64,000 nucleotides of DNA, from contig CAVPHV010000017.1 in NCBI GenBank assembly GCA_963704825.1, positions 359,325-423,324 on the forward strand, written 5' to 3'. How positions within the stretch are numbered: the stretch's first letter is position 1; the number at the start of each line of letters is the position of its first letter. Both the position numbers and the translations under genes were made by a program. Of the stretch, positions 8,611 to 24,588 are shown piece after piece. The stretch comes from an uncultured Acidimicrobiia bacterium. Lineage in GTDB: Bacteria; Actinomycetota; Acidimicrobiia; Spongiisociales; UBA5794. Below the pieces are notes generated by a model that was not told the origin of the DNA, did no database searches, and was given only the letters and a program-made list of their open reading frames with translations.

Positions 8611-9237
8611 GTGAAGACGAGCATCCCGAAAGCCACCATTGCCAGGCTGCCGCTCTACCTGCGGTGCCTCAGCGACCTCGCTGCGGCACAGACGACCTGC
8701 TCGTCCGATCAGTTGGCGACCAATGCCGGAGTCAACTCCGCCCAGGTGCGCAAAGACCTGTCCTATTTGGACGTCAGCGGGGTGCGCGGGGTGGGCTACT
8801 CCGTGGTCGAACTGCGCCACCAGTTGTCTACCGCCCTTGGCTTGAACCAGGGGTATGCGGTGGCGATCGTCGGCGCCGGCAATCTGGGGACGGCGTTGAG
8901 CAATTACGGTGGGTTCGCCGCGTGGGGCTTCACTGTGGCAGGGGTGTTCGACATCGATGCGGCAAAGGTCGGCACCGAGGTTGGCGGCCACCTGGTGCGT
9001 CCGCTGGTCGACTTGGAGGAGATCGTGCAGCAGCGCGACATCGCCATCGGCATCGTCGCCACGCCGGCAAATGCCGCTCAGCAGGTCGCCGACAGGTTCA
9101 TCGCCTCCGGGCTGCGGTCAATCCTCAACTTTGCGCCGACGGTGCTCCAGGTGCCCGACAACGTGTCGGTACGACGAGTGGATCTCTCCACCGAATTGCA
9201 GATTCTCACGTTCCATCTTCAGCAGGACGCCGGCTGA
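8611..9237 (+). CDS. rex: Redox-sensing transcriptional repressor Rex.
   Basis: N-terminus IPKATIARLPLYLRCL (winged HTH); Rossmann GAGNLGTAL. Typical 208-aa size. Confidence 0.9.
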   Translation: MKTSIPKATIARLPLYLRCLSDLAAAQTTCSSDQLATNAGVNSAQVRKDLSYLDVSGVRGVGYSVVELRHQLSTALGLNQGYAVAIVGAGNLGTALSNYGGFAAWGFTVAGVFDIDAAKVGTEVGGHLVRPLVDLEEIVQQRDIAIGIVATPANAAQQVADRFIASGLRSILNFAPTVLQVPDNVSVRRVDLSTELQILTFHLQQDAG

Positions 9238-9284: not shown

Positions 9285-9794
9285 TCAGGCGGACTCTTCC
9301 GCCGCGTTCTCATAGCGGTCGAGTGCCGCGACGAACATCAGGAACAGGATCAGTGAGCCGAGGGTGAGCGCAATCGCAGGCACCCGAACCTGGAAGGCGT
9401 TCAGCCCTTCAACATCGGAGGGCCGCAGCCCGCGCGGGGCGTAGACCACGAACAGGGCGCTGCCGATGACCAGCCAACCAAACGTGGCGGCGCCGGTGAC
9501 GAGGAAGGCGAGGCGGGCGCCCAGGTTGGTGTAGAGCAGTAGGTAGCCGCTGCCGATGAACGCGATGATCGAGGTCACGGTGATGAGTACCCCTCGGGTC
9601 GCAACCGAGAAGGCCGTTACCCGGCCGGTGTCGGGATCGACCTGCTTGAAGATGGCGTCGTAGATGTCCCCGAACAGGCCCCGCACCGGCGGAATGAACG
9701 AAAGGATGGCGACGATGATGGCAAAGACGCCAAGCCACTCGAGGGCAGTCAGCCCTGCTTCATCACTATGGAATCGCCGGCGCAGGTTGCTCAC
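9285..9794 (-). CDS. Small integral membrane protein (169 aa, about 4 TM), last gene of the bc-complex operon.
   Basis: Its ATG overlaps the stop of the upstream cytochrome c gene (ATGA). The N-terminal GLTALEWLG is superficially Flp/TadE-prepilin-like (G-x-T-A-x-E-[YF]), probably coincidental. Four hydrophobic helices. Confidence 0.5.
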   Translation of the reverse strand: MSNLRRRFHSDEAGLTALEWLGVFAIIVAILSFIPPVRGLFGDIYDAIFKQVDPDTGRVTAFSVATRGVLITVTSIIAFIGSGYLLLYTNLGARLAFLVTGAATFGWLVIGSALFVVYAPRGLRPSDVEGLNAFQVRVPAIALTLGSLILFLMFVAALDRYENAAEESA

Positions 9795-11464
9795 ATCGAC
9801 CTTTCATACTGGACGATGAGTCGGATGTCTTCCTCAGACAGGATCTGCCCAAATGCGGGCATCCAGCCATTGCCGATCCCGTTGACGCCGTAGTTCCTGG
9901 CCAGCTCGGAACCCTCGATGATGAACTTGACCTGGTCGTCCGCATTCGGGAACTGGCTGACGGAGGCACCACCGACAAGCGATGGCCCCCAGGCCCCGCT
10001 GCCGGCTTCCTGCTCGAAGGCAACCCCGGCGCTGTAGCCGGCGGTGTGACAGCGGGCGCAGTAGCCGTTGAACAGACCGACGGCCCGCTCGCTGTCGGCC
10101 ACGCTGAGCCCGGTGTTGGCAGCCACCTCGTCGAAGTCGACCGCCCACAGTTGCTCTGCCTCGGCGTCACGTAGGAAGTTGAGGCCCTCGACTGCAGTGT
10201 TCAGGAAGACCTCTTGGCGCTCGGTCACCACGCCAAGGGTGAGATGTGCGGTGCTGAGGTCATTCATCCAAGCGTCGAGCGAGTCGATGTCGGCAATGGC
10301 CACTCCCGCAGCGTCGGTCATCGTGAAAGCCTTGCTCGGGTCGAGCATGAGGTCGTACAGGTGTGGATACAAGCCGACGTTGGGCACGATCGTCACCTCA
10401 TACGTGATGTTCCCGTCGTCGTCCTCGACCGGGGACACCACCCGCACCACCACGGTGTCCGCGGTGATGGCGGCCAGCGAGTTCGGATCCCGCTCACCGT
10501 CCACGGACCCGGCGATGAGGCGTTCGGCTTCGTCGCTGATTCCGTCGCGGTCGGTGTCGAGCCCGGCCTGGTTGCAGGATGACCCGACCATGGCGGCGGA
10601 CTCATCGGTGCAGGTCCCGTCGCCGGCCAGGATGAAAGCGATGTTGGTCGGTGTGGCGCCTGCCTGCTCCAGTGTCTCGAACTTTGCCGGGGCGTCATTC
10701 AAGTCGGCGATGACTGCTTGTTCGGCGGCAATACGGGCGGCGACTGCCTCGGCGCCGCCGGCGATGCGGGCCAGGGCGGCGTCCACCGTCGGTTGGATCT
10801 TGGCGAGGGCATCGCCCTGGGAGATTTGGAACGACTCGATGAAGGCCATGACCTGGTCGACTTCCTGGGTGCTCATGGCGCCGCCGCCTTCGAGACCGTT
10901 GGCCGGCATCGGGGTGCCGGCGCGCCCGTAGACGACCCAGAACTCGACCTCTTCTTCGCTATAGCGGTAGAAGACATCGTTGAGCGAGGGAACGGCCCAC
11001 GAGGTCTCCAACCCGCTGCGTTCCTCCGTGTAGGCCGCGCCGCCACCGCCCCCGTCGGCGCCGTGGCAGTTGGTGCACACGAAGTTGGTGTACCACCTGT
11101 GGCCCTCTTCGATGTAGAGCTCGCTTTGGGCCTCCGCCGCCTCAGCCTGGCGGTCTGACTCGATGATGTAGTAGACCGGGATGAGGAGAGCAAGAACGCC
11201 GGCTGCAACTACGGCCGACGTCAGGATCTTGGTTAGCCGTCTGTTCTCCAGCTCATCGTCGGAGAGGTACGGCTGAAGGTTGGGCGGGGTTTCGTCGGCC
11301 TTCTTCTTGCCGACCCGCCTGCTGTTGATGATGAGGTAGCCCACCCAGATCAGGAAGGCGCCGATGACCACGATGAGCACAAACGCGCCGAGCCCGACGT
11401 TGGCAGGACCGGCCGGTGTGCTGTCGGTCTCCGCCGTCGCGAGGATGATCGATGCCGCCGTCAC
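9791..11464 (-). CDS. Membrane-anchored dihaem cytochrome c (about 557 aa) with a roughly 300-aa insert between the two haem domains.
   Basis: Two CxxCH motifs (CTNCHGADG and CARCHTAGYS). N-terminal TM VGLGAFVLIVVIGAFLIWVGYLII. The insert contains DTDRDGISDEAE (DxDxDG Ca-binding-like). Start assigned to GTG 11464, overlapping the Rieske stop (GTGA); the 620-aa ORF start at 11653 lies deep inside the Rieske gene. Confidence 0.75.
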   Translation of the reverse strand: MTAASIILATAETDSTPAGPANVGLGAFVLIVVIGAFLIWVGYLIINSRRVGKKKADETPPNLQPYLSDDELENRRLTKILTSAVVAAGVLALLIPVYYIIESDRQAEAAEAQSELYIEEGHRWYTNFVCTNCHGADGGGGGAAYTEERSGLETSWAVPSLNDVFYRYSEEEVEFWVVYGRAGTPMPANGLEGGGAMSTQEVDQVMAFIESFQISQGDALAKIQPTVDAALARIAGGAEAVAARIAAEQAVIADLNDAPAKFETLEQAGATPTNIAFILAGDGTCTDESAAMVGSSCNQAGLDTDRDGISDEAERLIAGSVDGERDPNSLAAITADTVVVRVVSPVEDDDGNITYEVTIVPNVGLYPHLYDLMLDPSKAFTMTDAAGVAIADIDSLDAWMNDLSTAHLTLGVVTERQEVFLNTAVEGLNFLRDAEAEQLWAVDFDEVAANTGLSVADSERAVGLFNGYCARCHTAGYSAGVAFEQEAGSGAWGPSLVGGASVSQFPNADDQVKFIIEGSELARNYGVNGIGNGWMPAFGQILSEEDIRLIVQYERSM

Positions 11465-12360
11465 ACGCACGATGGTCCCTGCGGATAGGCAATGGTCTTG
11501 ATGGTGGCCCGGGAGGTCTCGAGGACCTGGCCCGTCTGAACGACGAGGTCGCCGTTGTCGTTGATCTCGACGGCGAAGCGGTCCATGTTGCGCGGCGCCG
11601 GTCCATCCACGTACTCGCCGTGGAAGTTGTACTTGGAGCCGTGACAGGGGCATTCAAAACCCTGCGACGACAGACACTCGGGGACCCGGCAGCCGAGGTG
11701 GACACAGCGCTGCCAGAGTGCCATCAGGCCCGGCTCGCTGCCGTCGGTGGCGACCACGGGAAGACCAGCGAATGAGCTGGCATCCTGGACATTGGAGTCG
11801 AACGGAACGATCCACGATTGGGCCGCGGCCACGAAGACCGGCTGGACGGAGCCGTCGGCTTGGATCATCTGGAGCTGCAGCTCGGTGAAGTTGCCTGCGT
11901 TGATTGGTGAGCCAAAGCCACCCTTCAGCTTCGGCCACAGGAAGGCCAGGAAGCTCAGCGATAGTCCTCCGAGGAAGGCACCGACGAACAGACCGAACAA
12001 TGCTCGGTTCAGGAACTTGCGGCGGGTGACGCCGTACTCGGCGGACGTGATCGGGATCCTCTCCAGTGCCGGATCTGGCGGCGGGGCCGCCGGCCCAGTA
12101 GCCGTCTCAGACTCGGCCGTTGTGGCGGTGTCGTCTTCAGCGGTTGCCGTCAACGTGGCAACCGCGGTTCCGCCTCCGTCGGCAGCAGACGCCTGTCGTC
12201 GGCGGTCGGAGCGAACCGCACGCTTGTCGAGCTTGCCGGTTGCGGCCGAGGTGATGGGTTCGGCGGACGGGCCGCGGCGCCATGCCACAGTGAACACCGC
12301 GAGGGCCGCCAGCCCTGCGGCGGCGACAATGCCAATGACGAAGATGGTGGTTGCGCTCAT
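11461..12360 (-). CDS. Rieske [2Fe-2S] iron-sulfur subunit of a cytochrome bc-type complex (Tat signal).
   Basis: CVHLGCRV...CPCHGSKY Rieske boxes. Twin-arginine RRKFLNRALFGLFVG. Start taken at the internal ATG 12360 (MSATTIFVIG...), which overlaps the upstream stop (ATGA). Confidence 0.85.
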   Translation of the reverse strand: MSATTIFVIGIVAAAGLAALAVFTVAWRRGPSAEPITSAATGKLDKRAVRSDRRRQASAADGGGTAVATLTATAEDDTATTAESETATGPAAPPPDPALERIPITSAEYGVTRRKFLNRALFGLFVGAFLGGLSLSFLAFLWPKLKGGFGSPINAGNFTELQLQMIQADGSVQPVFVAAAQSWIVPFDSNVQDASSFAGLPVVATDGSEPGLMALWQRCVHLGCRVPECLSSQGFECPCHGSKYNFHGEYVDGPAPRNMDRFAVEINDNGDLVVQTGQVLETSRATIKTIAYPQGPSCV

Positions 12361-13577
12361 CAGAAATCGAAGAAGACGCCGTCGACCCAGGGGAACGTGA
12401 AGTTGAATCCCGGTCCTCGGAAGAACGACCCGTAGATGGTCAGCACTGCGGCTGCGAACAGGAAGAAGCTGAAGATCATGATGGCCAGCTTTCGGTCGGA
12501 CGGCCGCACCGATGGGTTGCGGTCGACGTAGGGAATCATGGCGAGCCCAATGGCACCGAAGGTCGGGACGATGATCCCGGCGACCTGAGGGTCGAAGTAA
12601 GAGAGCAGTTCTTGGAGTCCGAGGAAGTACCACGGCGCCTTGGATGGGTTGGGCTGTTCGTTGAAGTTGGCGAACTCGAGTAACGGGGCGTCAACAAACA
12701 CCGAGAAGACGAACAATGCCGCCAGCACCACCATGAGAGCGACAAACTCGATGGCGAGCAGATGCGGCCAGACGCTCACCTTGTCATGCGGTTCGGACTT
12801 GACCTGTTGGATCGCCCCGGCTTTGACGACGGTCAGCAAACGTTGGGTGCGGACGCCCTCTGGAATCGCCTGTGCGGCGGCAGGTGCGGCGGCAGCCGCC
12901 GCACCACCGGCGGCGGGGACGGCCGCGGGTGGCGGGGCAGGTGCGCCGCCTGCCATCGTGGGAACGGCGGTGCCGTCCTTCCTCGCTCTGGCCACCATCG
13001 CCCGTTGCAGGAGAGGTACCGGTACTCCGTAGGTTGCGGACTCGGCATCGAGGTCGCGCACCGGCCCGGTGGGTGCTGCCAATGGAGCGGGGGCGGCTGC
13101 GGCGGGTTGAGCAGCGGGCGGCGCTTCGGCCACGGCCGCCTCTCCTGCGGGCGTTGCACCCATGAGTTCAGCCATGACCTCATCGACCGAGCGACCTTCC
13201 CTCTTGGCCCGCGCCTCGGCGGATCGTCGGACGAGGTGTTCGGGGAGACCCGGCCCGCCGCCGGTCGGTGCCGCGGCGGCAGGTGCAGCCGGTTCGGGGG
13301 CGGCGGCCGGTGGAGCAGCCCCGGTCAGCTCGGCCATCACTTCCTCAACGGAGCGGCCCTCCTTCTTGGCGCGAGCCTCGGCGGTCCGGCGGAGGAGGGC
13401 TTCGGGGATCTGTGCGGCCTCGCCACTTGCGGCGGCAGGTGCAGCAGGTTCGGGTGCGGCGGGCGGTGGAGCGGCTTCACCCTTCATCTCTGCCAGCACT
13501 TCGTCGACGCTCCGCCCCTCGGCCTTGGCACGGGCCTCGGCGGATCGCCTCAGAATGCTTTCGGGTATCTCTGCCAC
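12360..13577 (-). CDS. Cytochrome b6f subunit-IV-like / cytochrome b C-terminal-domain protein with a long N-terminal Ala/Pro-rich extension carrying 3.5 copies of a roughly 25-aa motif.
   Basis: C-terminal about 140 aa have 3 TM helices and the P(E)WY motif (APWYFLGLQELL). N-terminal repeats IPESILRRSAEARAKAEGRSVDEVLAEMKG / IPEALLRRTAEARAKKEGRSVEEVMAELTG / LPEHLVRRSAEARAKREGRSVDEVMAELMG are separated by AP-rich linkers. Confidence 0.75.
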   Translation of the reverse strand: MAEIPESILRRSAEARAKAEGRSVDEVLAEMKGEAAPPPAAPEPAAPAAASGEAAQIPEALLRRTAEARAKKEGRSVEEVMAELTGAAPPAAAPEPAAPAAAAPTGGGPGLPEHLVRRSAEARAKREGRSVDEVMAELMGATPAGEAAVAEAPPAAQPAAAAPAPLAAPTGPVRDLDAESATYGVPVPLLQRAMVARARKDGTAVPTMAGGAPAPPPAAVPAAGGAAAAAAPAAAQAIPEGVRTQRLLTVVKAGAIQQVKSEPHDKVSVWPHLLAIEFVALMVVLAALFVFSVFVDAPLLEFANFNEQPNPSKAPWYFLGLQELLSYFDPQVAGIIVPTFGAIGLAMIPYVDRNPSVRPSDRKLAIMIFSFFLFAAAVLTIYGSFFRGPGFNFTFPWVDGVFFDF

Positions 13578-13586
13578 GCGGTCTCC

Positions 13587-14369
13587 TTAGAGCGGACCCG
13601 AGATGCCGCCGTCTTTGCGCACTCGCCAGAAGTGCACGGCCATGAACACCACGATCACGAACGGGAAGAACAAGACGTGGAGGACGTACCACCGCAGCAG
13701 CGTGTCCGGCGTGATCTGGACGCCGCCGATCAACGCAAAGGACACTTGATCTCCCAACACCGGCGCATAGGCCCCCATGTTGGTGCCGACGGTCACCGCC
13801 CATACAGCCAATTGGTCCCACGGCAGCAGGTAGCCGGTGAACGAGAGGAGCAGGGTGAGGAGAAGGAGGATGATGCCGACCACCCAGTTGAATTCGCGGG
13901 GCGGCTTGTAGGCGCCGTGGTAGAAGACCCGAGCCATGTGGAGGAACACGGTCAGCACCATCAGGTGGGCACCCCATCGGTGCATGTTGCGTACCAACTG
14001 ACCAAAGGCCACGTCGGTCGAAAGCGCCTGGATGTCCTGGAAGGCGGCCGGTGACGTCGGCCGGTAGTAGAACATCAGGAAGATGCCGGTGATCGTGAGC
14101 AGGATGAACAGGAAGAACGAGAGTCCGCCGAGACAGAGGGTGTAGGAGAGCCGGACGCCGTGGCGCTTCACCTTCACCGGGTGGAGGTGGTAGAGCACGT
14201 TGTTCATGATCACATAGGAGCGGTTGCGGGGGCTGTCCGAGTAGCCAGCGCGCAGCGGTGAGCCGGGGCGGAAGATGCTCGACCACACCTGGCTGGATTG
14301 GATGCTCTCACCGACTTGGACCAGGCGCTCTTTCAGCCCGACCTTGCCGTCTCCGTTCCCGTTCGCCAC
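13587..14369 (-). CDS. Cytochrome b6-type (short, 260 aa) cytochrome b N-terminal domain protein.
   Basis: Four TM helices with bis-haem His pairs (MHRWGAHLMVLTVFLHM and RWYVLHVLFFPFVIVVFMAVHFWRVRKDGGISGP), typical of PetB/QcrB (Bacillus-type). Confidence 0.85.
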   Translation of the reverse strand: MANGNGDGKVGLKERLVQVGESIQSSQVWSSIFRPGSPLRAGYSDSPRNRSYVIMNNVLYHLHPVKVKRHGVRLSYTLCLGGLSFFLFILLTITGIFLMFYYRPTSPAAFQDIQALSTDVAFGQLVRNMHRWGAHLMVLTVFLHMARVFYHGAYKPPREFNWVVGIILLLLTLLLSFTGYLLPWDQLAVWAVTVGTNMGAYAPVLGDQVSFALIGGVQITPDTLLRWYVLHVLFFPFVIVVFMAVHFWRVRKDGGISGPL

Positions 14370-14433
14370 CCGACCTCCTCAAAGGCGTCGATAGTCTCAC
14401 CCACGGCAAGCGCCGGTCAAAATCGACCGTCGC

Positions 14434-14880
14434 TCACCAACGTACTCCGTATGCATACCCGTTCTTGAAGTCGCGAGCTCCTGTGTCGTACTCCCACGGC
14501 GCCAGACCGTGCTCATCTGCTTCCGCCGACAGCGAGCCGGCGAATTTGCCGAGCGAGATCACGCCGGTGGGGCAGCGGTCGATGCAGAGTGCACATCTGG
14601 TGCACTCATCCTCGTCGACCACGAAAAACCCCTTGTTCTCGGCATTTGACCCGGGGTCATCAACGTTGACCCCCTCGGCGATGGCGTCAACCGACAAGTA
14701 GTGGATGCACTTCCAGGGACAGATGTCGACACATCCCTCACACAGAATGCACTCGGCCTGGTTGATGTGAAGGAACTGCTTCGGCTTGACTGCTGCGATC
14801 AGGTACGCCCCGTCGACGGCGGCGAGTTGATAGTCGTCGCGCATCGGCGGGGTTTCGAACCAGACGTCGCTCTTGGCCAT
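14434..14880 (-). CDS. 2x[4Fe-4S] ferredoxin-like protein encoded inside the bc-complex operon.
   Basis: Two CxxCxxCxxxCP motifs (CILCEGCVDICP and CTRCALCIDRCP). Start at internal ATG 14880 (MAKSDVWF...). There is a 5-nt gap to the upstream gene. Confidence 0.75.
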   Translation of the reverse strand: MAKSDVWFETPPMRDDYQLAAVDGAYLIAAVKPKQFLHINQAECILCEGCVDICPWKCIHYLSVDAIAEGVNVDDPGSNAENKGFFVVDEDECTRCALCIDRCPTGVISLGKFAGSLSAEADEHGLAPWEYDTGARDFKNGYAYGVRW

Positions 14881-14885
14881 CTTCG

Positions 14886-15404
14886 CTACCTCTCGACCTT
14901 GGTCATGGGCCGACCATACGTCGAGACCGGTTGCGGCGGCGGACCGGATGCGATCTTCTTCTGCTGGTCCTGCCACTTGATCATCACGAAGGCGATGGCG
15001 CCGGTGATGGCGACGGAGTAGCCGGCCACGATCATGTCCTTGATGACTGCGTAGCTGATGGAAACGTCGTTGTTGAGCACAAGCACAGGGGGAATCGTGA
15101 GGAAGTTCTTCTGGGGCGTCCACTCCCATACCGCCTGAGTGAGCGTGAGCCATTGGTTGGGGATGACGCCGTAGAGGATGACCATCAGGCCGGTGAAGAG
15201 TGCGGCACCGAGCGAGGCGCGGGCCCAGGTCATCTTCCGCTTGTAGAGGAAGGCGAGTGTGGCGCTCGCCATGGCGAGGAGCACGCCGCCCAGGGCGACG
15301 AGTTGACCGAACAGTACGAAGCCCCACCCACGGGGGATTGCGGGGTAGATCTCCCGGCCGAGGTCGTCGAACTCGTTGAGACCGGTGAAGTGCGCAATGA
15401 GCAC
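14886..15404 (-). CDS. Integral membrane protein (172 aa, about 4 TM), first gene of the bc-complex operon; GTG start.
   Basis: Hydrophobic helices (WGFVLFGQLVALGGVLLAMASATLAF..., LGAALFTGLMVILYGVI...). No recognisable family. Confidence 0.5.
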   Translation of the reverse strand: MLIAHFTGLNEFDDLGREIYPAIPRGWGFVLFGQLVALGGVLLAMASATLAFLYKRKMTWARASLGAALFTGLMVILYGVIPNQWLTLTQAVWEWTPQKNFLTIPPVLVLNNDVSISYAVIKDMIVAGYSVAITGAIAFVMIKWQDQQKKIASGPPPQPVSTYGRPMTKVER

Positions 15405-15630: not shown

Positions 15631-17607
15631 ATGGAGGACGCGCGAGCGGTGGCCGCAGAGACGAAGACCGACGCTTCCGAGCCCGTACAGTCTGTGGCGG
15701 TATCTGGGTACTCCGGAGCAGCCCGCGCCCACATCTTTGTAGCGCTCGGCTCGCTCTTTGCCGGCGTCATGCTTGCCCTGGTTGCCGTGACGCAACTGGT
15801 CCTTCCCGATGTGTTCTCCGGCGTCGGCATGCTGAGCTACGGCAGGGTGCTTCCCGCTGCGACCAACGTTCTCGTCTACGGCTGGCTGACGGTTGGATTG
15901 ATCGGCGCCGCCTACTACATCGTTTCCGAGGTCGCCGGAGTCAAACTCCAGTTCGAGCCGCTCGCCCGAGTGGGCGCTCTGTTGCTCGCCATCGGTGTCA
16001 TCGCCGGCGCCGGCGGGATCGCACTCGGTTGGAGTGAGGGACGCACCTACGTCGAGATGCCGCTGTGGGCGGACTTCTTCGTTCTCCTCGGCTTGCTGAT
16101 CGCGGTGCGGGTCATCACCGCAACCATCTCCGATCGCACCAACCGCGAGATGGGTCCGGCCCTGTGGTTCCTCGGCGCCGCACCACTGTGGCTGTTGTTT
16201 GCCTTCGTGGTCGGCAACATCCCCGGCCTGGTCGGGATGAACAGCGTCATCCAGACCGCCTTCTACCGCGGCGCCCTTGCCGGGCTCTGGTTGTCGGTAG
16301 CCGGCTTCGGGATCGTGTACTACCTCATACCGAAGGTGACCGGCCGCGGACCGGCCAAGCCGACCAAGCTCGCGGTCATGGGTTTCTGGTCGCTCGGGTT
16401 CGTCTGGGCGTTTGCCGGAGCCGCCAACCTCACGTACACCCCGGCCCCCGGCTGGCTGCAGACCATCGGTGTCGTGTTCTCGATCGCGCTCTTCCTTCCG
16501 CTCGCCATGCTGTTCACAGATCTGGTTGGTCTGATGCGTGGCCGCTGGGGTCGGGCACGCGACCGGATGACGATGCGCTTCATCGGGGCGGGAGCAATCC
16601 TGTTGCTGGTGACGGCGGTCATCAACCTGCTCCAGGCGCTGCGGGCATCGAACGCCGTTGTCGGCTACACCATCTGGGGTGCCGCCTTCGAGTACGCCAC
16701 GTTCTACGGGGCATTCACGCTGTGGCTGGCCGCCTTCATCTACGCCGCGGCCGGTGATCTGCTCGGAGGTGTCTTCAAGCCTTCGGTGGCGAGAGGGCAC
16801 TACCGCCTCACGACGTTCTCGATCACCGTCATCCTGGCGACGACGCTGATCGGAGGCCTGCAAACCGGGTTCTTGTGGATCGCCGACGCCAACAGTCCCG
16901 AAAGTACCGTGGCTTACGGGCCAGGGTGGAAGGCCGTCGTTGAATCGCTTCAGCCGCACTACTGGATCTTGTTCCTGGCGATGGTTCTGTTTGTCTTCGC
17001 TCAGGTCCGCTTTGTCGCCGGCGGGGTCGCCGCGGCCATCAACGCGAGACCGGCGGAGCCGGAGACGGCCGACCACGACGACCTCGAAGGACCCGACCTC
17101 GCGGATGCCGGCTGGATGGCGACCAACGGAGTGTCCGCCCGCCACCTGTGGCTCGGGTCGACTGGTCTCCTTGTGCTGGCGGCCCTGCTGGTGGTGCTGC
17201 TGCCCTCGCTCGAGGCTTCTCACGTGGACGGGACCATCCTCTCGGACCGCTCCCGCAACTACCGCTCCGATGACTTCTTGGAGCGCGGCCGCGGGTTGTA
17301 CCTGGCCGAGGGGTGCTGGTACTGCCACACCCAGGACGTCCGGCCCATCGTCACGGACGTGGAATTGGGTGCGGTCAGCCAGCCCGGCGATTACGCAAAT
17401 GAGGTTCCGGCCTTGCTCGGCACGGCTCGGGTGGGACCCGACCTGATGCACGCCGCGACCCGGGAGGAAGCCGGTTCGAGCGCGTTCCTTTTTGATCACT
17501 TGACCGACCCGCGGGTCGACCGCCCCTGGTCGATCATGCCGAGTTATGACTACCTGTCGGAGAACGACCGGTTGGCCCTCGCCGCCTACATCACGAGTCT
17601 GGACTGA
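15631..17607 (+). CDS. cbb3-type oxidase subunit I (CcoN)-like 12-TM domain lacking all canonical haem/CuB histidine ligands, fused to a CcoO/FixO-like monohaem cytochrome c domain.
   Basis: Block-wise similarity to CcoN as I remember it: [34 protein letters not shown] vs [53 protein letters not shown] vs [33 protein letters not shown] vs GPHHLHYT. The C-terminus [22 protein letters not shown]...VGPDL...IMPSYDYL matches the CcoO haem-c site. Confidence 0.75.
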   Translation: [658 protein letters not shown]

Positions 17608-17610
17608 GCG

Positions 17611-18483
17611 ATGGAAGATCAGATCCAAAGAGTTGCCGAACAAACCGGGGTCCCTAGTGGCCTGTTACAACGCGCCGCCGCCGCCCGCGCCACCGCGGCA
17701 GGCACCTCGACCGAGGTCATCGTGGCGAAGTGGGCCGGCGAGGACGCGGCAGCTCCGGCAGCAGCCACGGCCGCTCCCGCTCCGGCCGCGCCGCCGGTCG
17801 CTCCGGCCCCGGCGCAGCCGCCGGCAGACAGTTCGACGCCGGCAGTTGAGGTGCTTGAACCGGTCGCCGCGGCTCCCAGCACGGTCGGAGCGGATGCGTC
17901 GGAACCTGAACCGGAGCCCGAGCCTGCAGCCGCAGGCGGGTTCCCCAAGTGGCTGGCCGCCGCCTTCATTGTGATCCCTGCCATTGCGCTGTTCTATGCC
18001 CTGCTCTTCCCGAATGGTCCTGACTGCGGTTCGGCCGGTCAGTTGGCCGTCGATCCCGGCACCGGTGTCGCCGTGAACTGTGACGGCAGCGCGTTCGGGT
18101 CCGAGGAGTTCAGCTACTTCGGCACCGGCGAGGTCATCTACGCCGAACGGTGTGCCGCGTGCCATGGTGCCAACGGCGCCGGTGGCGCCAACTTTCCCGC
18201 TCTGGCCGGTGGGGCCGTGGTTGCGACCTTTGGCTCCTGCACCGATCACGTTGCGTGGGTTGGGTTGGGAACGGCCGGATTCCAGGAAGCCGGCATCGCC
18301 ACCTACGGCGACAGTGAGAAACCCGTGGGCGGCGCCGGGGTTCCCATGCCGGGCTTTGAGGGTGTCATCTCCGAGCAAGATCTGATTGCGGTCGCCCTCT
18401 ACGAGCGAGTCGCCTTCGGCGGCGAGGATCTTGCGGTTGCTGAGGAACTCTGCGTCGGCCAAGAGGCCGTGGCTTCTCCGTAG
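17611..18483 (+). CDS. Membrane-anchored monohaem cytochrome c (CcoP-like) with an N-terminal motif related to the subunit-IV repeats.
   Basis: CAACHGANGAGG (CxxCH) with flanking FPALAGG as in CcoP. Central TM FPKWLAAAFIVIPAIALFYALLF. The N-terminal LLQRAAAARATAAGTSTEVIVAKWAGE resembles LLRRSAEARAKAEGRSVDEVLAEMKGE. ATG is 4 nt after the upstream stop. Confidence 0.7.
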   Translation: MEDQIQRVAEQTGVPSGLLQRAAAARATAAGTSTEVIVAKWAGEDAAAPAAATAAPAPAAPPVAPAPAQPPADSSTPAVEVLEPVAAAPSTVGADASEPEPEPEPAAAGGFPKWLAAAFIVIPAIALFYALLFPNGPDCGSAGQLAVDPGTGVAVNCDGSAFGSEEFSYFGTGEVIYAERCAACHGANGAGGANFPALAGGAVVATFGSCTDHVAWVGLGTAGFQEAGIATYGDSEKPVGGAGVPMPGFEGVISEQDLIAVALYERVAFGGEDLAVAEELCVGQEAVASP

Positions 18484-18511
18484 TCTCGGCGCGCTCGGTA
18501 CGCTCCCTGCC

Positions 18512-19774
18512 ATGACTTCACCGGATGTACTGGTTGTCGGCGGCGGCCCCGCCGGGGCCTCTGCCGCCTATTGGATGGCGCAGCGTGGGGTGTCCGTCCT
18601 GGTCGTCGAGAAGAAGACCTACCCGCGTGAGAAGACCTGCGGTGACGGGCTGACCCCGCGGGCGGTCAAGCAACTGATCGACATGGGGTTCGATTTCGAC
18701 ATTCCCGAACTCCATCGGATCGACGGGCTGCGCGCCTACGCCGGTGACCTGATGCTGGAGCTGCCCTGGCCGGAGCGCACCACCTATCCATCGTGGGGCG
18801 CCGTCATCCGCCGTGCCGACCTCGATGGGCGGGTCGCCATGCTCGCCGAAAAGCAGGGGGCGGTGATTCAGCAGGGGACCGAGGCCACGGCCATTGTCGA
18901 CGACGGCAGACTGGTCGCGGTCGACCTGAAGGTCGGCAACGGCTCGGGAGAGTCAGAGATCACCCGGGTCACGCCCCGGCTGGTTGTCATCGCCGATGGG
19001 TCGCTGTCGCGTTTCGGGCGAAAGCTCGGCACGGCGCGACGTCGCGACTACCCATACGGTCTTGCCGTGCGCGCCTACTACTCGAGCCCCAACTCGGGCG
19101 ATCGATTCCTCGAGAGCCAGCTCAACATCACCGACCGCAACGGCCGTCACATGCCGGGGTACGGCTGGATCTTCCCGCTCGGCGACGGCACCATCAACAT
19201 CGGCGCCGGAGCCCTTTCCACCTTCAAGGGGTGGAAAGACCTCAATACGACCGAACTCCTCGAGGCTTATGTATCCGGCCTGCCATCGCGTTGGGAGGTC
19301 ACGGCGGCGTCGCTGCTCACCGAGCCGACCGGGGGCAAGCTGCCGATGGCCTTCTCGATCGGACCCAAGGTCGGTCCGAATTGGGTTGTGGTCGGAGACG
19401 CGTCAGGGGCGGTCAATCCCTTCAACGGCGAAGGAATCGACTACGCCTACGAGACGGGACGCCTGGCCGCCGGCTATGTCGCCGACGCTCTGGCGACGGG
19501 CGACAGTGGACCCCTCTACGGCTACGCCCAAGCGATCGAGCAGGAATACGGCGATTACCACAAGGTCGCCAGGATCTTTGCGCTGGCGATCGGGAACCCG
19601 GCCGTGATCAAGACCCTCACCCAGGTGGGAATGCGTTCCCGTCCACTGATGGAGTGGGTACTGAAGGTCATGGCCAACCTGCTCGAACCGGAGGAGCGCG
19701 GGATGACCGAGCGGGTCTACGGAGCCATTGAACGGGTCGTCAAGATCGCCCCCGAGCCCAACCGATCTCGGTAA
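18512..19774 (+). CDS. FAD-dependent geranylgeranyl reductase-family oxidoreductase (candidate menaquinone/isoprenoid side-chain reductase, MenJ-like).
   Basis: Start at internal ATG 18512 (MTSPDVLVVGGGPAGASAAYWMAQRGVSVLVVEKK: GxGxxG FAD fold). ...TCGDGL... and GDASGAVNPFNGEGI are typical of the GGR family. Confidence 0.8.
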   Translation: MTSPDVLVVGGGPAGASAAYWMAQRGVSVLVVEKKTYPREKTCGDGLTPRAVKQLIDMGFDFDIPELHRIDGLRAYAGDLMLELPWPERTTYPSWGAVIRRADLDGRVAMLAEKQGAVIQQGTEATAIVDDGRLVAVDLKVGNGSGESEITRVTPRLVVIADGSLSRFGRKLGTARRRDYPYGLAVRAYYSSPNSGDRFLESQLNITDRNGRHMPGYGWIFPLGDGTINIGAGALSTFKGWKDLNTTELLEAYVSGLPSRWEVTAASLLTEPTGGKLPMAFSIGPKVGPNWVVVGDASGAVNPFNGEGIDYAYETGRLAAGYVADALATGDSGPLYGYAQAIEQEYGDYHKVARIFALAIGNPAVIKTLTQVGMRSRPLMEWVLKVMANLLEPEERGMTERVYGAIERVVKIAPEPNRSR

Positions 19775-19803: not shown

Positions 19804-22800
19804 GTGACGACGTCGGGGGATTTCAGCGAAGTCGATCTTGACCAGTTGGTCGAGCAGATCGTCGCTGCCGATGAGGTGGCGAGTGATGTGCTGGCGGCGT
19901 TCGCCCGGGCCTATCTGAGCCGAGTCCCGCAGGAGCGTCTCGCCGCCTGGCCGCCGGACGAGCTTGGGGCTCACGTTCGCCACCTCTTTGAATTCGCCGC
20001 CGACCGCCGCGGCGACGACGTCGAGGTTCGTGTCTTCAACCCAACCGTCGAGACCGCCGGCTATGCGCTGAGCGGAGCCGTCGTCGAGGTGGCGGCGCCG
20101 GACATGGCGTTCCTGGTGGACTCGATCACCAACGAGATCCAGTCGCACGGTTTCAACGTCGAACGTGTCGTCCATCCCGTGGTCGGCACCGGACGCGACG
20201 CCACCGGGCGCTTGGTCGAGATCAGGCCGGCCCGCACCTCGATGTTGCGCGAGTCGATCCAGCACTACGAGCTGAGCCGGCCGATCGGGGAGCACGACGC
20301 TGCGGAATTGGAGACAGGCGTGCGGCGGGTGTTGCTCGACGTCGCTCGCGCCGTTGACGACTTCGAGCCGATGCAGGGCGCCATCTACCGCATGATCAAG
20401 GTGACTCGGGACGGTGCGGCCCGCTATTCGAAAGAGGAGATCGATGAGGATGTTGCCTTTCTCGAATGGCTGCTCGACCTCAACTTCGTGTTCCTGGGCT
20501 ACCGCGAGTATCGGATCGCACCGGGGGTGACCGAACCCGAGTTGTCGGTGGTTCCGGGTTCCGGTCTCGGCATCCTGCGCGACGACACCGAGTCGGGTTT
20601 TGCATCGCCGGTTCCGATGTCTGAGGTACGGCCCTCGCTGCGGGCCCGGTACGAGAGCGGCGATCTGCTGGTGATCAGCAAGACGAACTCGCCATCCCGG
20701 GTCCACCGCAATGCGAAGATGGACTACGTCGGCGTCCGGCACGTTGGACCCGACGGGACCGTGATCGGCGAAGCGCGGATGGTCGGCCTGTTCACCTCGA
20801 AGGCGTATATGGCGGCGGCCGATTCGATCCCGCTGCTGCACCGCAAGCTCACCCAGATCATCGAGGCGGAGGACTTGATCGAGGGCTCGCACTCCTACAA
20901 GGAGGTCGTCGGGCTCTTCAACAGCTTCCCCAAGGACGAATTGTTCACCACACCGACGCCCGACATTCGGCGCAGCATTGTCGGTCTGCTCCAACTTCAA
21001 GAGCAGCGCCACGTCCGGCTCTTTGTACGGCGCGATCTGCTGCGGCGCAGCGCGTCGGTGCTGGTGGTGATGCCACGAGACAGGTTCAACGCCGCCCTGC
21101 GTCACCGGCTCCAGGCCCTGTTGCTTGAGCGGTTCGGCGGGACCTCCATCGACTACCGATTGTCGCTCGGCGACGCCGATACGGCCCGGCTGCACTTCAC
21201 GGTATGGGTTGCCGGAGGAGAGGTTCCCGACGTGTCAATCGAGGTTCTCGAGGCAGAGGTCGTTGCCGAGGCACAGACCTGGGAGGAGCGCCTCGCCGGA
21301 GAGGTCGATGCCCGCTACGGCTCCGAACGCGGTCGGGCGTTGCTCGACGAGTGGGCCGGCAAGTTTCCCGATCACTACCGGGCATCCATCCCGTTGTCGA
21401 TTGCAGCCGGTGACCTCGGCAAACTCGACGAACTGGTAGCCGGCTCAGGGAGGGCGGTTGTCGGACTTCAGAACGAACCTGGGCCGGGCGAGCAGCTCAC
21501 CCGGCTCGCCGTGTATCGCTCAGACGGCAAGTTGGAACTCTCTGCCATCATGCCGACCCTCGAGGCGCTCGGGCTTCGGGTGGTCGAAGAAGTGCCCACG
21601 CGGCTCCGCGGCGGGGACGGCGGGCTCTTCATCCACGACTTCGGGGTGCTCGACCTCGATGGAGCCATGCTCGACCTCGACGATGTCGCCGACCGGGTGG
21701 CCGACACTGTGGTTGCGGTTCTCGCGGGTCAAGCCGAATCCGATTCTCTCAACCGGTTGATCATCAGCGCCGGACTCGACCATCGCCAAGTGACGATCCT
21801 GCGGGCCTATCGCACCTACTGGCGGCGGGTCAGTCCAGGATTCACGGTTGAGTACATCAACGACGCCTTTGCCGCCCATCCCGAGATCGCCGCGGATCTG
21901 GTCGAGTTGTTCGCCACTCGCTTCGACCCCGGGCTCGGCGAGGCAGAAGAGGCTCCTACCCTGGCTCGGATCCTTTTCGAGTTGGACCAGGTCTCCAGCC
22001 TCGACGAGGACCGCATTCTGCGCGGCTTTCTGGGACTCGTGCTCGCCACCAAGCGGACCAATGTGTACCTGCCCGGCGCCGACAGCCTCAGCTTCAAGTT
22101 CCGTTCGAGCGAGGTGCCGGCCATGCCGGAGCCGGCTCCGCTGTTCGAGATCTTCGTTTACGCCGGCGAGGTCGAAGGCATCCACCTGCGGGGCGGACGG
22201 GTGGCTCGTGGTGGTATCCGCTGGTCGACCCGCAAAGAGGACTACCGCACAGAGGTGCTCGGGCTGATGAAGGCGCAGATGACCAAGAACGCCGTCATCG
22301 TTCCCACCGGATCAAAGGGCGGCTTTGTGCTGCGTCGGCCGCCGGCGGATCCGGCCGAACTGCGCGACGCGGTGCTCGCCGGCTACATGATTTTCATCCG
22401 CGGGTTGCTGGACGTCACCGACAACCTGGTGGAAGGGACGGCGGTGCATCCCGCCGGAGTTCGAATCCATGATGACGGCGATCCTTACTTGGTGGTTGCG
22501 GCCGACAAGGGCACCGCCACGTTCTCCGACACCGCTAACGAGATCGCCGCGGCCTACGACTTCTGGCTGGGCGATGCGTTCGCGTCCGGCGGTTCGGCCG
22601 GATACGACCACAAGGCCCTCGGCATCACGGCTCGGGGCGCATGGGAGTCGGTCAAGTGGCACTTCCGCGAACTGGGTATCGACATCATGCACGAGCCCTT
22701 CACCGTGGTCGGCATCGGCGACATGTCGGGTGATGTCTTTGGAAACGGGATGCTGTTGTCACCACACATCCGGCTCGTCGCCGCCTTCGATCACCGCCAC

Positions 22801-24588
22801 ATCTTCATCGACCCCGATCCCGATCCGGCGACGTCCTTCGCCGAACGCCGCCGGATGTTCGCTCTGCAAAGGTCGAGTTGGGAGGACTACGACGACTCGC
22901 TGATCTCGGCCGGGGGCGGGGTGTTCTCTCGCACCGCAAAACGGATCGACCTGACCGATGAGATACGGCTGGCTCTCGGCACCAACGCCCACCAGCTGAC
23001 ACCCGACGAGCTGATCCAGGCCATTCTGAGAGCACCGATTGACTTGCTGTGGAACGGCGGCATCGGAACGTACGTCAAGGCAGCCGCCGAGACCAGCGAG
23101 CAGGTCGGAGACCGCGTCAACGATGCCTTGCGCGTCAACGGCTTCGAACTGCGTTGCAGGGTGATCGGAGAAGGCGGCAACCTCGGGCTGACTCAGCCGG
23201 GTCGCATCGAGTTCGCTCGCGGCGGCGGTCGGGTCAACACCGACTTCATCGACAACTCCGGCGGGGTCCATTGTTCGGACCGCGAGGTGAATCTGAAGAT
23301 CCTGCTGGGTTTGGCCGAGGTGCGCGGCGAGCTGGATCGCGGGGGACGCGACGCCCTCGTCACCGACGTCGTTGACGATGTGGTCTCCGCCATCGTCTAC
23401 GACAATTTCCTCCAGGCGCAGATCATGGCCCAGGAGGTCCACGGCTCGGCTCAATCCCTCGAGGCGTACGAGGATCTGATGTCGCTGTTGGAGAGCGAGG
23501 GAGCACTCGATCGTCGCATTGAGCGGTTGCCCACCACCGAAGAGATGAGCGAGCGGGCTCGCCTCGGCGAAGGAATGCCCGCCCCGGAACTTGCCGTGCT
23601 GCTCGCCTATTCGAAGCGCAGTTTGCGCGACTGGCTGCTCGACTCGGAGTTGCCGGATTGGGACGACTTCAGCGATGAAGCGCGTGGGTACTTCCCTGCC
23701 GAGGTTGTGCGCCGATTTGGTGATCTGATCCCCGAGCATCCACTGCGTCGTGAGCTGGTGGCGACCATCGTGGCCAACCGGGTCGTCAACTCGGAAGGGG
23801 CGACGTTCGTGACCCGGCTCATGGCCGAGACCGGGGCAGCCCCCGAGCAGGTGGTGCGGGCATATCACATCGCCAGGGGCGTCACCGACGCCCCCAATCG
23901 CTGGCGAGCCGTCGAGTCGCTGGTCGGCCGGGTCCCTGCCGAGGTCGAGCGTGATTTGTTGGAGGGAATCGACGGATTGGTCGAGAACATTGCTCGGTGG
24001 TACCTGACTAATCCGTCTGCCGAGTTCATGAGCGAGGTGACGGCGACCGCCAAACCGGCATTCGACGAGATGGCAGAGATCATTGCCGAGATCGGGCCGG
24101 CCCAGTGGCGGGCCGATCGTGACGCCGCAGTAGTCGTCTGGGCCGAGCAAGGCGTTCCCGCCGAGGTCGCCATCCGCCACGTCTACCAAGAGGAGTTGAT
24201 CCACGCTCCCGATGTGATCGTGGTGGCGCAGCGCACCGGGCGTTCGGTGCGCGACGTCGCCCAACTGTTCCTGCTCATCGGTCCGGTGTTCGAGATCGAC
24301 TGGCTCGAGGAGCAGGTCGCCGCGTTGCCCGCTGCCGGCCGCTGGCACCGCCGGGCCATCAAGACCGTCGAAGACGATCTTGTCCTGCTGCGGCGCCAAC
24401 TCGCCGAGCACATCCTGGCGGTCTCGGACGACGCCGTTCCACACGCCGCGCTCGACCACTACCTCGTTGAGCACACCCACGAACTCGGCCGCCTCACACG
24501 CTTCATGCGCTCTCTCGCCATCGATGGCGTGGACGACGTGGCCTCGGTGATCGTCGCCATCCGCCAAATCCGATCCCTGGCCACCTGA
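19804..24588 (+). CDS. gdh: NAD-specific glutamate dehydrogenase, large (about 180 kDa) bacterial type (Bac_GDH, PF05088).
   Basis: 1594 aa. Catalytic core motifs PTGSKGGFVL, VVAADKGTATFSD, GGSAGYDHKALGITARGAWESV, GDMSGDVFGNGML and NSGGVHCSDREVNLKIL. Confidence 0.9.
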   Translation: MTTSGDFSEVDLDQLVEQIVAADEVASDVLAAFARAYLSRVPQERLAAWPPDELGAHVRHLFEFAADRRGDDVEVRVFNPTVETAGYALSGAVVEVAAPDMAFLVDSITNEIQSHGFNVERVVHPVVGTGRDATGRLVEIRPARTSMLRESIQHYELSRPIGEHDAAELETGVRRVLLDVARAVDDFEPMQGAIYRMIKVTRDGAARYSKEEIDEDVAFLEWLLDLNFVFLGYREYRIAPGVTEPELSVVPGSGLGILRDDTESGFASPVPMSEVRPSLRARYESGDLLVISKTNSPSRVHRNAKMDYVGVRHVGPDGTVIGEARMVGLFTSKAYMAAADSIPLLHRKLTQIIEAEDLIEGSHSYKEVVGLFNSFPKDELFTTPTPDIRRSIVGLLQLQEQRHVRLFVRRDLLRRSASVLVVMPRDRFNAALRHRLQALLLERFGGTSIDYRLSLGDADTARLHFTVWVAGGEVPDVSIEVLEAEVVAEAQTWEERLAGEVDARYGSERGRALLDEWAGKFPDHYRASIPLSIAAGDLGKLDELVAGSGRAVVGLQNEPGPGEQLTRLAVYRSDGKLELSAIMPTLEALGLRVVEEVPTRLRGGDGGLFIHDFGVLDLDGAMLDLDDVADRVADTVVAVLAGQAESDSLNRLIISAGLDHRQVTILRAYRTYWRRVSPGFTVEYINDAFAAHPEIAADLVELFATRFDPGLGEAEEAPTLARILFELDQVSSLDEDRILRGFLGLVLATKRTNVYLPGADSLSFKFRSSEVPAMPEPAPLFEIFVYAGEVEGIHLRGGRVARGGIRWSTRKEDYRTEVLGLMKAQMTKNAVIVPTGSKGGFVLRRPPADPAELRDAVLAGYMIFIRGLLDVTDNLVEGTAVHPAGVRIHDDGDPYLVVAADKGTATFSDTANEIAAAYDFWLGDAFASGGSAGYDHKALGITARGAWESVKWHFRELGIDIMHEPFTVVGIGDMSGDVFGNGMLLSPHIRLVAAFDHRHIFIDPDPDPATSFAERRRMFALQRSSWEDYDDSLISAGGGVFSRTAKRIDLTDEIRLALGTNAHQLTPDELIQAILRAPIDLLWNGGIGTYVKAAAETSEQVGDRVNDALRVNGFELRCRVIGEGGNLGLTQPGRIEFARGGGRVNTDFIDNSGGVHCSDREVNLKILLGLAEVRGELDRGGRDALVTDVVDDVVSAIVYDNFLQAQIMAQEVHGSAQSLEAYEDLMSLLESEGALDRRIERLPTTEEMSERARLGEGMPAPELAVLLAYSKRSLRDWLLDSELPDWDDFSDEARGYFPAEVVRRFGDLIPEHPLRRELVATIVANRVVNSEGATFVTRLMAETGAAPEQVVRAYHIARGVTDAPNRWRAVESLVGRVPAEVERDLLEGIDGLVENIARWYLTNPSAEFMSEVTATAKPAFDEMAEIIAEIGPAQWRADRDAAVVVWAEQGVPAEVAIRHVYQEELIHAPDVIVVAQRTGRSVRDVAQLFLLIGPVFEIDWLEEQVAALPAAGRWHRRAIKTVEDDLVLLRRQLAEHILAVSDDAVPHAALDHYLVEHTHELGRLTRFMRSLAIDGVDDVASVIVAIRQIRSLAT

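Follow-up and report, generated by a model that had tools for sequence, protein, structure and literature searches.

To our knowledge, the respiratory supercomplexes of known structure are all joined by contacts embedded in the membrane or lying on its positive side (p-side). In this context, we analyzed a stretch of 64,000 nucleotides from an uncultured Acidimicrobiia bacterium (assembly GCA_963704825.1, contig CAVPHV010000017.1, positions 359,325 to 423,324), here called the window, in which a short Arg/Ala/Glu-rich module is repeated at the cytoplasmic N-terminus of a b6c/b6f-type subunit IV and recurs once on a membrane-anchored cytochrome c encoded nearby. The module represents a mini-domain family that has not been described before and is for the most part restricted to Acidimicrobiia. 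Our analysis shows that the domain exists, that it is predicted to fold and evolves under purifying selection, and that its carriers form a restricted and specific set. On balance, we lean towards the view that it acts as a multivalent cytoplasmic protein-docking handle on flexible tethers.

Several described systems share single features with this locus. Within the same phylum, the obligate CIII2CIV2 supercomplexes of Mycobacterium and Corynebacterium likewise lead from a complex with a dihaem cytochrome c to the oxidase with no soluble carrier (PMC8523172, PMC5040959), but there a bcc complex whose cytochrome b is unsplit provides the joining contacts, in the membrane and on its periplasmic side, and a cytoplasmic repeat module is lacking. 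Cytochrome cy and CcoP in the bc1-cbb3 supercomplexes of Rhodobacter capsulatus and Pseudomonas aeruginosa offer another parallel, an anchored cytochrome with a flexible linker (PMC7876108, PMC10556555). As in those systems, the gene of the anchored cytochrome adjoins a Rieske/cytochrome b complex and a cbb3-type oxidase, between which its product presumably works. The linker of cytochrome cy, however, is periplasmic and connects the anchor to the haem domain, whereas here linker and domain are cytoplasmic and N-terminal to the anchor; unlike in the cytochrome cy systems, the same domain is also found on subunit IV. Similarly, the cytoplasmic or stromal face of b6f complexes, including the N-terminal region of subunit IV, binds peripheral proteins, as described for PetP and for FNR, whose co-purification with b6f is cited in PMC5600118. 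These partners bind a compact native surface; no tethered repeat domain is known there, and none that is shared with oxidase subunits.

By analogy, the E2 cores of 2-oxoacid dehydrogenases are a clear precedent for the design of the module; in their peripheral-subunit-binding domain an Arg-rich first helix docks the partner enzymes. Both cases combine a self-folding helical mini-domain of about 35 amino acids (aa), flanking Ala/Pro linkers and an Arg-rich first helix, and, as for the E2 lipoyl and peripheral-subunit-binding domains, the number of tandem modules varies between species. The likeness is architectural only: the modules described here are carried by integral membrane respiratory subunits and not by a soluble catalytic core, and neither the proteins nor 48 isolated copies match the E3_binding family PF02817 at E<=1.

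An initial annotation of the DNA had reported Arg/Ala/Glu repeats at the N-terminus of subunit IV. The peptides it quoted are all present in the translated open reading frame (ORF) 12360..13577, and the rough DNA positions it gave lie within copies 3, 2 and 1 (Table 1). The unit, given there as about 25 aa, measures 30-33 aa, or 44 aa in its three-helix form. What had been taken for a degenerate half copy, the quoted fourth peptide (aa 187-210, DNA 12948-13019), lies inside a copy of a distinct B type with an extra helix upstream and a shortened last element. This membrane-proximal subtype, RDLxAESxxYGVPxxLLxRAxxARAxxxG, is conserved in its own right in 119 of the 120 best homologues.

The three A-type copies are 73-77% identical to one another as protein, 67-74% as DNA and 43-50% at third codon positions. 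High protein identity with low third-position identity marks them as old duplicates held alike by selection on the protein. They did not arise as a recent repeat of the DNA or through faulty assembly. Tandem Repeats Finder detects a period of 159 base pairs (bp) over 13273-13574. In an alignment of 23 sequences (A1), copy 1 is nearly invariant, and almost all residues of its first helix are invariant or >=90% conserved; copy 2 has a positional orthologue in relatives with three to five copies. The conserved residues of the copy 1 helix include the charged R10, R11, E14, R16, E20 and R22, and the linkers vary freely, linker 1 also in length among homologues. These charged residues cannot all be buried and are conserved all the same, a pattern to be expected of a binding surface and not of a spacer. 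The A copies have a net charge of 0 and the copy on cytochrome c one of -1, and the linkers are acidic.

The suggestion that the number of repeats might vary was borne out. Counted in the best 120 of more than 7000 subunit IV homologues (E<=0.001), two copies are present in 82 proteins, three in 31, four in five and five in one, with a single copy detected in one further protein; elsewhere up to seven occur, so that the overall number ranges from one to seven. The copies multiply by tandem duplication, and a relative with 97% identity has one exact additional copy.

The relation to the cytochrome c encoded at 17611, also noticed in the initial annotation, holds in both directions. When 1044 six-frame segments of the window are scored with a profile hidden Markov model (HMM) built from copies 1-3 alone, the N-terminus of this protein heads the non-self hits (E=0.002); conversely, a single-sequence search with the cytochrome c N-terminus returns subunit IV at E=4.7e-7, and the match becomes unambiguous once homologues are added. 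No further copies were found elsewhere in the 64-kb window. Orthologous three-helix N-termini are present on 49 neighbouring cytochrome c ORFs. The label 'CcoP-like' had to be given up: the protein has one membrane anchor and a single CxxCH, at aa 181, and is a membrane-anchored monohaem cytochrome c. A canonical dihaem CcoP was rejected on this ground and on the score of TIGR00782 (18.3 against a cut-off of 179.95), and the likeness to CcoP is limited to the gene position after a fused ccoNO and to the N-terminal anchor. In at least 24 loci, and in much of the class, the cytochrome c gene adjoins the b6c operon without ccoNO. Inside the linker of the cytochrome c there is a 27-bp tandem repeat (17752-17825, plus strand, 2.8 copies, 79% matches; Tandem Repeats Finder), through which the linker probably varies in length.

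All variants of the module fit one ungapped alignment, in which P, R and R-A are invariant and G is near-invariant. The three-helix form of about 44 aa, MSDLxAAAAALGIPExLVQRSAEARAxAxGxSVDEVLAAWAGG, heads the cytochrome c and the CcoO-like proteins. The A form of about 30 aa, (M)AEIPEHILRRSAEARAKAEGRxVEEVLAEMKGE, is without the first helix, has Met or Leu in place of the Trp of the third, and is the form found multiplied in subunit IV. The B form, RDLxAESxxYGVPxxLLxRAxxARAxxxG...P.FAG, retains helices one and two with a shortened third and is always the subunit IV copy nearest the membrane in the clade of the window. In distant Acidimicrobiia (Ilumatobacteraceae, Microthrixaceae and the cultured Salinilacustrithrix flava) the central basic helix alone remains. 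This one-helix box, (M)TEIPEHLLKR[AS]xxA+xKA, is found both on subunit IV, in two copies, and on the divergently encoded cytochrome c. The reduced subunit IV begins with MTEIPEHLLKRAQxARxKA and has a second box, ...RIPAHLLERSKAAKAK; the anchored cytochrome c begins with (M/V)TEIPEHLLKRSxxAKAKAxG.

By prediction, the module is a small, independently folding helical domain. AlphaFold2 gives the subunit IV copies a predicted local distance difference test (pLDDT) score of 85-95, compared with <50 and no helices for all linkers; the three-helix domain was predicted from a 48-sequence alignment. The initial question of whether the repeats form an amphipathic helix-turn-helix is thereby answered with a predicted helix-turn-helix-like mini-domain. 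In b6f complexes, PetD places its N-terminus on the negative side (n-side) of the membrane, and haem c is attached on the p-side. Together with the alignment to the b6f structure 1vf5_B, this topology puts the N-terminus of subunit IV in the cytoplasm; a single anchor and a haem domain matured outside do the same for the N-termini of cytochrome c and the CcoO-like proteins. Disordered tethers rich in Ala and Pro, in part also Glu, hold the copies 20 to >170 residues away from the first membrane helix.

An exhaustive search of 1.84 billion representative proteins with a profile of all variants returned 456 clusters at E<=0.001, of which 160 reach E<=1e-10, with up to seven copies per protein. 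This significance, which the initial annotation had set as the check on its motif, shows that the similarity is not mere low complexity. The sharing of the module by two neighbouring operons is real, and the range of carriers is wider than proposed. The best 150 of the 456 clusters hold 144 new matches, many of them fragments that end in a linker. Among the matches listed, the full-length carriers are subunit IV, the anchored monohaem cytochrome c, CcoO-like proteins, a fusion protein and a protein with five to six transmembrane (TM) helices. The fusion proteins (P0176 and P0183, from metagenomes) have seven and three copies ahead of the first subunit IV helix, which is fused to a homologue of the membrane protein encoded at 9285..9794, which suggests that this 169-aa protein physically neighbours subunit IV. 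The 5-6-TM carrier (P0270, 401 aa, L081 8001-9206; similar proteins are P0291, P0298 and P0304) consists of a three-helix domain, a linker and the TM helices, and belongs to no Pfam or NCBIfam family. Its gene is convergent to and adjoins a caa3 oxidase operon encoding COX2-cytochrome c, COX1, COX3, COX4_pro and CtaG. All carriers are membrane proteins with a cytoplasmic N-terminus that belong to respiratory complexes, except the 5-6-TM protein, which is instead encoded beside one (seen for one member). No fusion to a recognisable soluble domain was found among the 150 matches listed. Four apparently soluble or odd carriers (P0239, P0191, P0295 and P0237) were rejected as Arg-rich, apparently out-of-frame products of probably error-prone assemblies.

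A word-indexed search with a 46-aa profile yielded 55 proteins of 39-80 aa. All 14 that were inspected stop within an Ala/Pro/Glu-rich linker, and several bear the label 'partial' in their source records; architecture cannot be deduced from this search. Named records come mostly from Acidimicrobiia or unclassified Actinomycetota, and three are labelled Acidobacteria/Acidobacteriota. Across 80 genomic loci of species-representative genomes, subunit IV and the neighbouring cytochrome c carry the module, as does the CcoO-like subunit where ccoO is a gene of its own.

Comparison with known families supports the earlier impression that this is not a named domain. Searches of Pfam and NCBIfam with whole proteins and the 48 isolated copies gave no family over threshold for the module, and a profile search of PDB sequences with the domain alignment gave chance-level matches only, for example to 20 aa of arsenite oxidase (E=0.1). 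Foldseek found no significant match in the PDB; its non-significant ones include the ribbon-helix-helix proteins AvtR and VapB. The motif strings were not found in the papers searched, nor was a publication on the respiratory complexes of Acidimicrobiia. Ribbon-helix-helix antitoxins do share a helix, a G-R-S turn and a second helix (LPxxL...RA...G(R)S...E). They were rejected as relatives: the FitA-like PF22513 and VapB PF02697 families score 14.9 against 27 and 17.4 against 27.9 bits, with weak matches in five of the 48 copies; no strand is predicted before the helices, copy 1 having just 'MAE' ahead of its helix; and the charge is neutral or acidic. Unlike the antitoxins, the module has no beta-ribbon, is fused to membrane proteins and has no DNA-binding context. 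A twin-arginine translocation (Tat) signal was also rejected, since the RR leads into the charged helix SAEARAKAEGR, recurs internally and is followed by a long hydrophilic linker.

The carriers of the oxidase branch add an evolutionary signal. In a sister clade, ccoN and ccoO are separate and CcoO bears its own N-terminal three-helix domain (L010, L013-L016, L022, L027, L030 and L036). Among the paired genes (L010-L036), the CcoO and cytochrome c domains share 79% identity within a genome and 66% between genomes (permutation p<5e-5), and the pairs have lineage-specific substitutions in common. At synonymous sites they are only slightly more similar within (0.45) than between genomes (0.37; p=0.03). 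This co-variation fits a shared constraint, for instance a common or mutual partner. In two further loci (L002 4579-6129 and L007 4750-5871, both minus strand) the cytochrome c has an A-type-like copy, LPEALLRRSAAARAKREGRPLDEVLVEMG, beside three-helix copies, and hence the subunit IV type of module has moved into, or re-evolved in, another gene.

Table 1. Features of the module-bearing genes and their operons; coordinates are window positions, and aa numbers refer to the respective protein.
Feature	Position	Strand	Description
Subunit IV gene, b6c/b6f type	12360..13577	-	405 aa; 236-aa N-terminal extension; GTG start, AAGGAG 5' of it
A-type copy 1, aa 4-33, IPESILRRSAEARAKAEGRSVDEVLAEMKG	13479..13568	-	Two-helix hairpin; AlphaFold2 helices 6-20, 24-32; pLDDT about 87
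Ala/Pro linker 1, aa 34-56	13410..13478	-	74% Ala+Pro, net charge -3; pLDDT <50 at aa 40-54
A-type copy 2, aa 57-86, IPEALLRRTAEARAKKEGRSVEEVMAELTG	13320..13409	-	AlphaFold2 helices 59-73, 77-85; pLDDT 93-94
Ala/Pro linker 2, aa 87-110	13248..13319	-	75% Ala+Pro; pLDDT <50 at aa 89-109
A-type copy 3, aa 111-140, LPEHLVRRSAEARAKREGRSVDEVMAELMG	13158..13247	-	AlphaFold2 helices 113-127, 131-139; pLDDT 91-95
Ala/Pro linker 3, aa 141-172	13062..13157	-	72% Ala+Pro; pLDDT <50 at aa 141-170
B-type membrane-proximal copy, aa 173-210, VRDLDAESATYGVPVPLLQRAMVARARKDGTAVPTMAG	12948..13061	-	AlphaFold2 helices 176-183, 187-201; pLDDT 85-91
Ala/Pro linker 4, aa 211-236, from B copy to conserved pre-membrane segment	12870..12947	-	81% Ala+Pro; pLDDT <50 at aa 215-239
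Subunit IV core, aa 237-405	12363..12869	-	Conserved n-side segment, TM helices, APWY at Qo-motif position
Membrane-anchored monohaem cytochrome c gene, 'CcoP' position	17611..18483	+	290 aa; starts 3 nucleotides after ccoNO stop; PF13442, PF00034
Three-helix domain of cytochrome c, aa 1-44, MEDQIQRVAEQTGVPSGLLQRAAAARATAAGTSTEVIVAKWAGE	17611..17742	+	AlphaFold2 pLDDT 93.5; helices 2-12, 16-30, 34-42
Acidic Ala/Pro linker of cytochrome c, aa 45-110, from domain to membrane anchor	17743..17940	+	61% Ala+Pro; net charge -9
Fused CcoN-CcoO gene	15631-17607	+	658 aa; COX1 aa 31-450, FixO aa 550-646
Seven-gene operon	9285-15404	-	172-aa membrane protein, ferredoxin-like, cytochrome b6, subunit IV, Rieske, dihaem cytochrome c, 169-aa membrane protein
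2x[4Fe-4S] ferredoxin-like gene	14434..14880	-	Present in 72/80 operons
Cytochrome b6 gene	13587..14369	-	PF00033, E=3.6e-48; followed directly by subunit IV gene
Rieske gene	11461..12360	-	PF00355; translationally coupled to subunit IV gene
Dihaem cytochrome c gene	9791..11464	-	Translationally coupled within the Rieske/subunit IV run
169-aa membrane protein, last gene of operon	9285..9794	-	No Pfam/NCBIfam family

The product of ORF 12360..13577 is a PetD-type protein by profile, by gene context, and by its helices and Qo motif. PF00032 (Cytochrom_B_C) matches aa 303-384 with 29.8 bits against a cut-off of 20.7, and the sole match among PDB sequences is 1vf5_B, the subunit IV of a cyanobacterial b6f complex (E=0.0078, aa 269-375). 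The equivalog TIGR01156 stays far under its cut-off (13.7 against 127), which makes the protein a divergent member of the PetD family. AlphaFold2 places three C-terminal TM helices at 270-304, 315-352 and 359-386, and APWY, a variant of PEWY, lies within the invariant stretch PNPSKAPWYFLGLQE. A protein with 100% identity (P0002) is encoded on a 350-kb contig independent of the window.

The surrounding operon is conserved: each of its seven genes is detected in 64-80 of the 80 Acidimicrobiia loci, and the order b6-subunit IV-Rieske is kept in 74-80 of them. Its 172-aa and 169-aa membrane proteins belong to no family in Pfam or NCBIfam. A ferredoxin gene within a Rieske/cytochrome b operon is unusual. 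Cytochrome b6 retains a Cys at aa 79 in a CxGG context (YTLCLGGLSF), which resembles the covalent haem ci site of b6f and Firmicute b6c complexes. This Cys and the ferredoxin-like gene jointly hint at electron input from the n-side. Further genes were assigned by eye. The product of 8611-9237 (plus strand) is, judging by its N-terminal sequence, presumably the redox-sensing repressor Rex; such a gene adjoins the b6c operon in 22 of the 80 loci, mostly in closer relatives of the window. On the other side, the gene at 18386/18509..19774 presumably encodes a geranylgeranyl reductase, and downstream of it a 1594-aa ORF (19804-24588, plus strand) looks to us like a large-type NAD-specific glutamate dehydrogenase.

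The docking-handle reading draws on the conserved surface, the occurrence of the same sequence on unrelated subunits, its multiplication within and exchange between genes, and the co-variation of the CcoO and cytochrome c copies. In such an arrangement, the b6c complex, through the one to seven copies of subunit IV, and the anchored cytochrome c would each present the same conserved docking surface. The domain is likewise carried by CcoO where this is a separate protein, and by the uncharacterised polytopic protein, for one member of which the gene adjoins a caa3 operon. These components of the menaquinol-to-oxygen branch of respiration might then be gathered on the n-side of the membrane, round a common partner or round each other. 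Several results weigh against this picture. No docking partner was identified for the mini-domain, and the AlphaFold2 model of full-length subunit IV (predicted template modelling score, pTM, 0.25) gives no sign of copies packing together. The Rieske protein, dihaem cytochrome c, cytochrome b6 and ferredoxin-like protein are without the module in 81 loci (about 1.4 Mb), so it does not mark all subunits. The likeness of CcoO and cytochrome c copies within a genome could stem from old gene conversion. Finally, the near-invariance of the A copy of subunit IV, set against the drift of the copies on CcoO and cytochrome c, speaks against a simple one-to-one co-evolution between them.

What the module would bind can be framed in two ways. 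Each copy may be a landing pad for one conserved soluble or peripheral protein of the Acidimicrobiia cytoplasm, such as a regulator, a factor for assembly or quality control, or a redox partner on the n-side like the 2x[4Fe-4S] ferredoxin-like protein; we hold this to be a tangible possibility that stays short of an even chance. A short basic helix at the extreme N-termini, to which the module is reduced across the class, resembles a linear motif that a folded receptor would read, the exposed charged residues are invariant, and the parallel with the E2 peripheral-subunit-binding and lipoyl domains points the same way. For the ferredoxin in particular one can cite its gene in 72 of 80 operons and the CxGG cysteine of cytochrome b6, but bringing a ferredoxin to the n-side tail of a periplasmic cytochrome c would be hard to explain. 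No receptor candidate emerged, and the lack of soluble-enzyme fusions among the 150 matches listed leaves no Rosetta-stone clue. Alternatively, the domains of subunit IV, cytochrome c and CcoO may bind one another, homo- or heterotypically, to yield a loose supercomplex or membrane patch held from the cytoplasmic side, for example through small helical bundles. Consecutive electron-transfer partners do bear the same module, which is multivalent and on long tethers; the A hairpin, without its first helix and with Met or Leu for Trp, would fit an open face, and A and B copies show complementary helix loss. The co-variation of CcoO and cytochrome c copies within genomes also suits such a tether, as does the dependence of the many Actinomycetota without soluble cytochrome c on III-IV supercomplexes (PMC8523172, PMC4505504). 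Since the invariant A copy does not follow the variable CcoO and cytochrome c copies, and most of the class has kept no more of the module than a single 18-aa helix, which is unlikely to self-associate, we consider mutual binding possible but doubtful.

Explanations without a specific partner have to account for the same sequence on unrelated subunits across a whole class. A purely structural role, in which an N-terminal cap with acidic bristles fixes the N-in topology, solubilises the tail or blocks FtsH-type proteolysis, agrees with the constant N-terminal, cytoplasmic position on N-in subunits and with about neutral domains joined by acidic linkers. It is nevertheless unlikely, since surface residues are conserved as strongly as the membrane core, up to seven tandem copies are unnecessary for topology or capping, and the CcoO and cytochrome c copies co-vary. 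Binding of nucleic acid or of the membrane surface by the basic helix, which would be what remains of a ribbon-helix-helix or helix-turn-helix domain, could be read from its Arg/Lys-rich composition and from the sub-threshold VapB and FitA-like Pfam matches and non-significant Foldseek matches to AvtR and VapB. With scores of 14.9-17.4 bits where 27-28 are needed, five of 48 copies matching, no N-terminal beta-strand predicted and three residues before the helix of copy 1, a net charge of 0 (A copies) or -1 (cytochrome c copy), and acidic linkers, this reading is very improbable. That the repeats reflect low-complexity similarity or an assembly artefact would be suggested by an Ala-rich region in a genome of 65% G+C and by the modest E=0.002 of the leave-out HMM confined to the window. 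The identical protein on an independent 350-kb contig, the >7000 homologues, the P, R, R-A and G columns kept across all variants, the 160 clusters at E<=1e-10 against 1.84e9 proteins and the confident AlphaFold2 fold make this possibility practically negligible.

Carried one step further, the docking-handle reading leads to a more speculative and rather unlikely scenario, in which Acidimicrobiia would build the menaquinol-to-oxygen branch from the cytoplasmic side and the mini-domains, one to seven per component on long Ala/Pro tethers, would cross-link these components, directly or via one adaptor. Such a patch might comprise the b6c complex, the anchored cytochrome c, the cbb3-type oxidase subunits and perhaps the caa3-linked protein. 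If true, different complexes of a whole bacterial class would have in common a modular, conserved n-side handle that is unlike the known supercomplex contacts. Should a soluble factor be recruited instead, the module would be a lead to a new protein of assembly or regulation that several respiratory complexes share. The new 30-44 aa mini-domain family could enter domain databases, and Salinilacustrithrix flava is a cultured carrier open to experiment. Acidimicrobiia are common in soils, oceans and sponges; if the module is a docking handle, it would provide a sequence-defined, testable entry into the organisation of electron transfer in this abundant and little-studied group.

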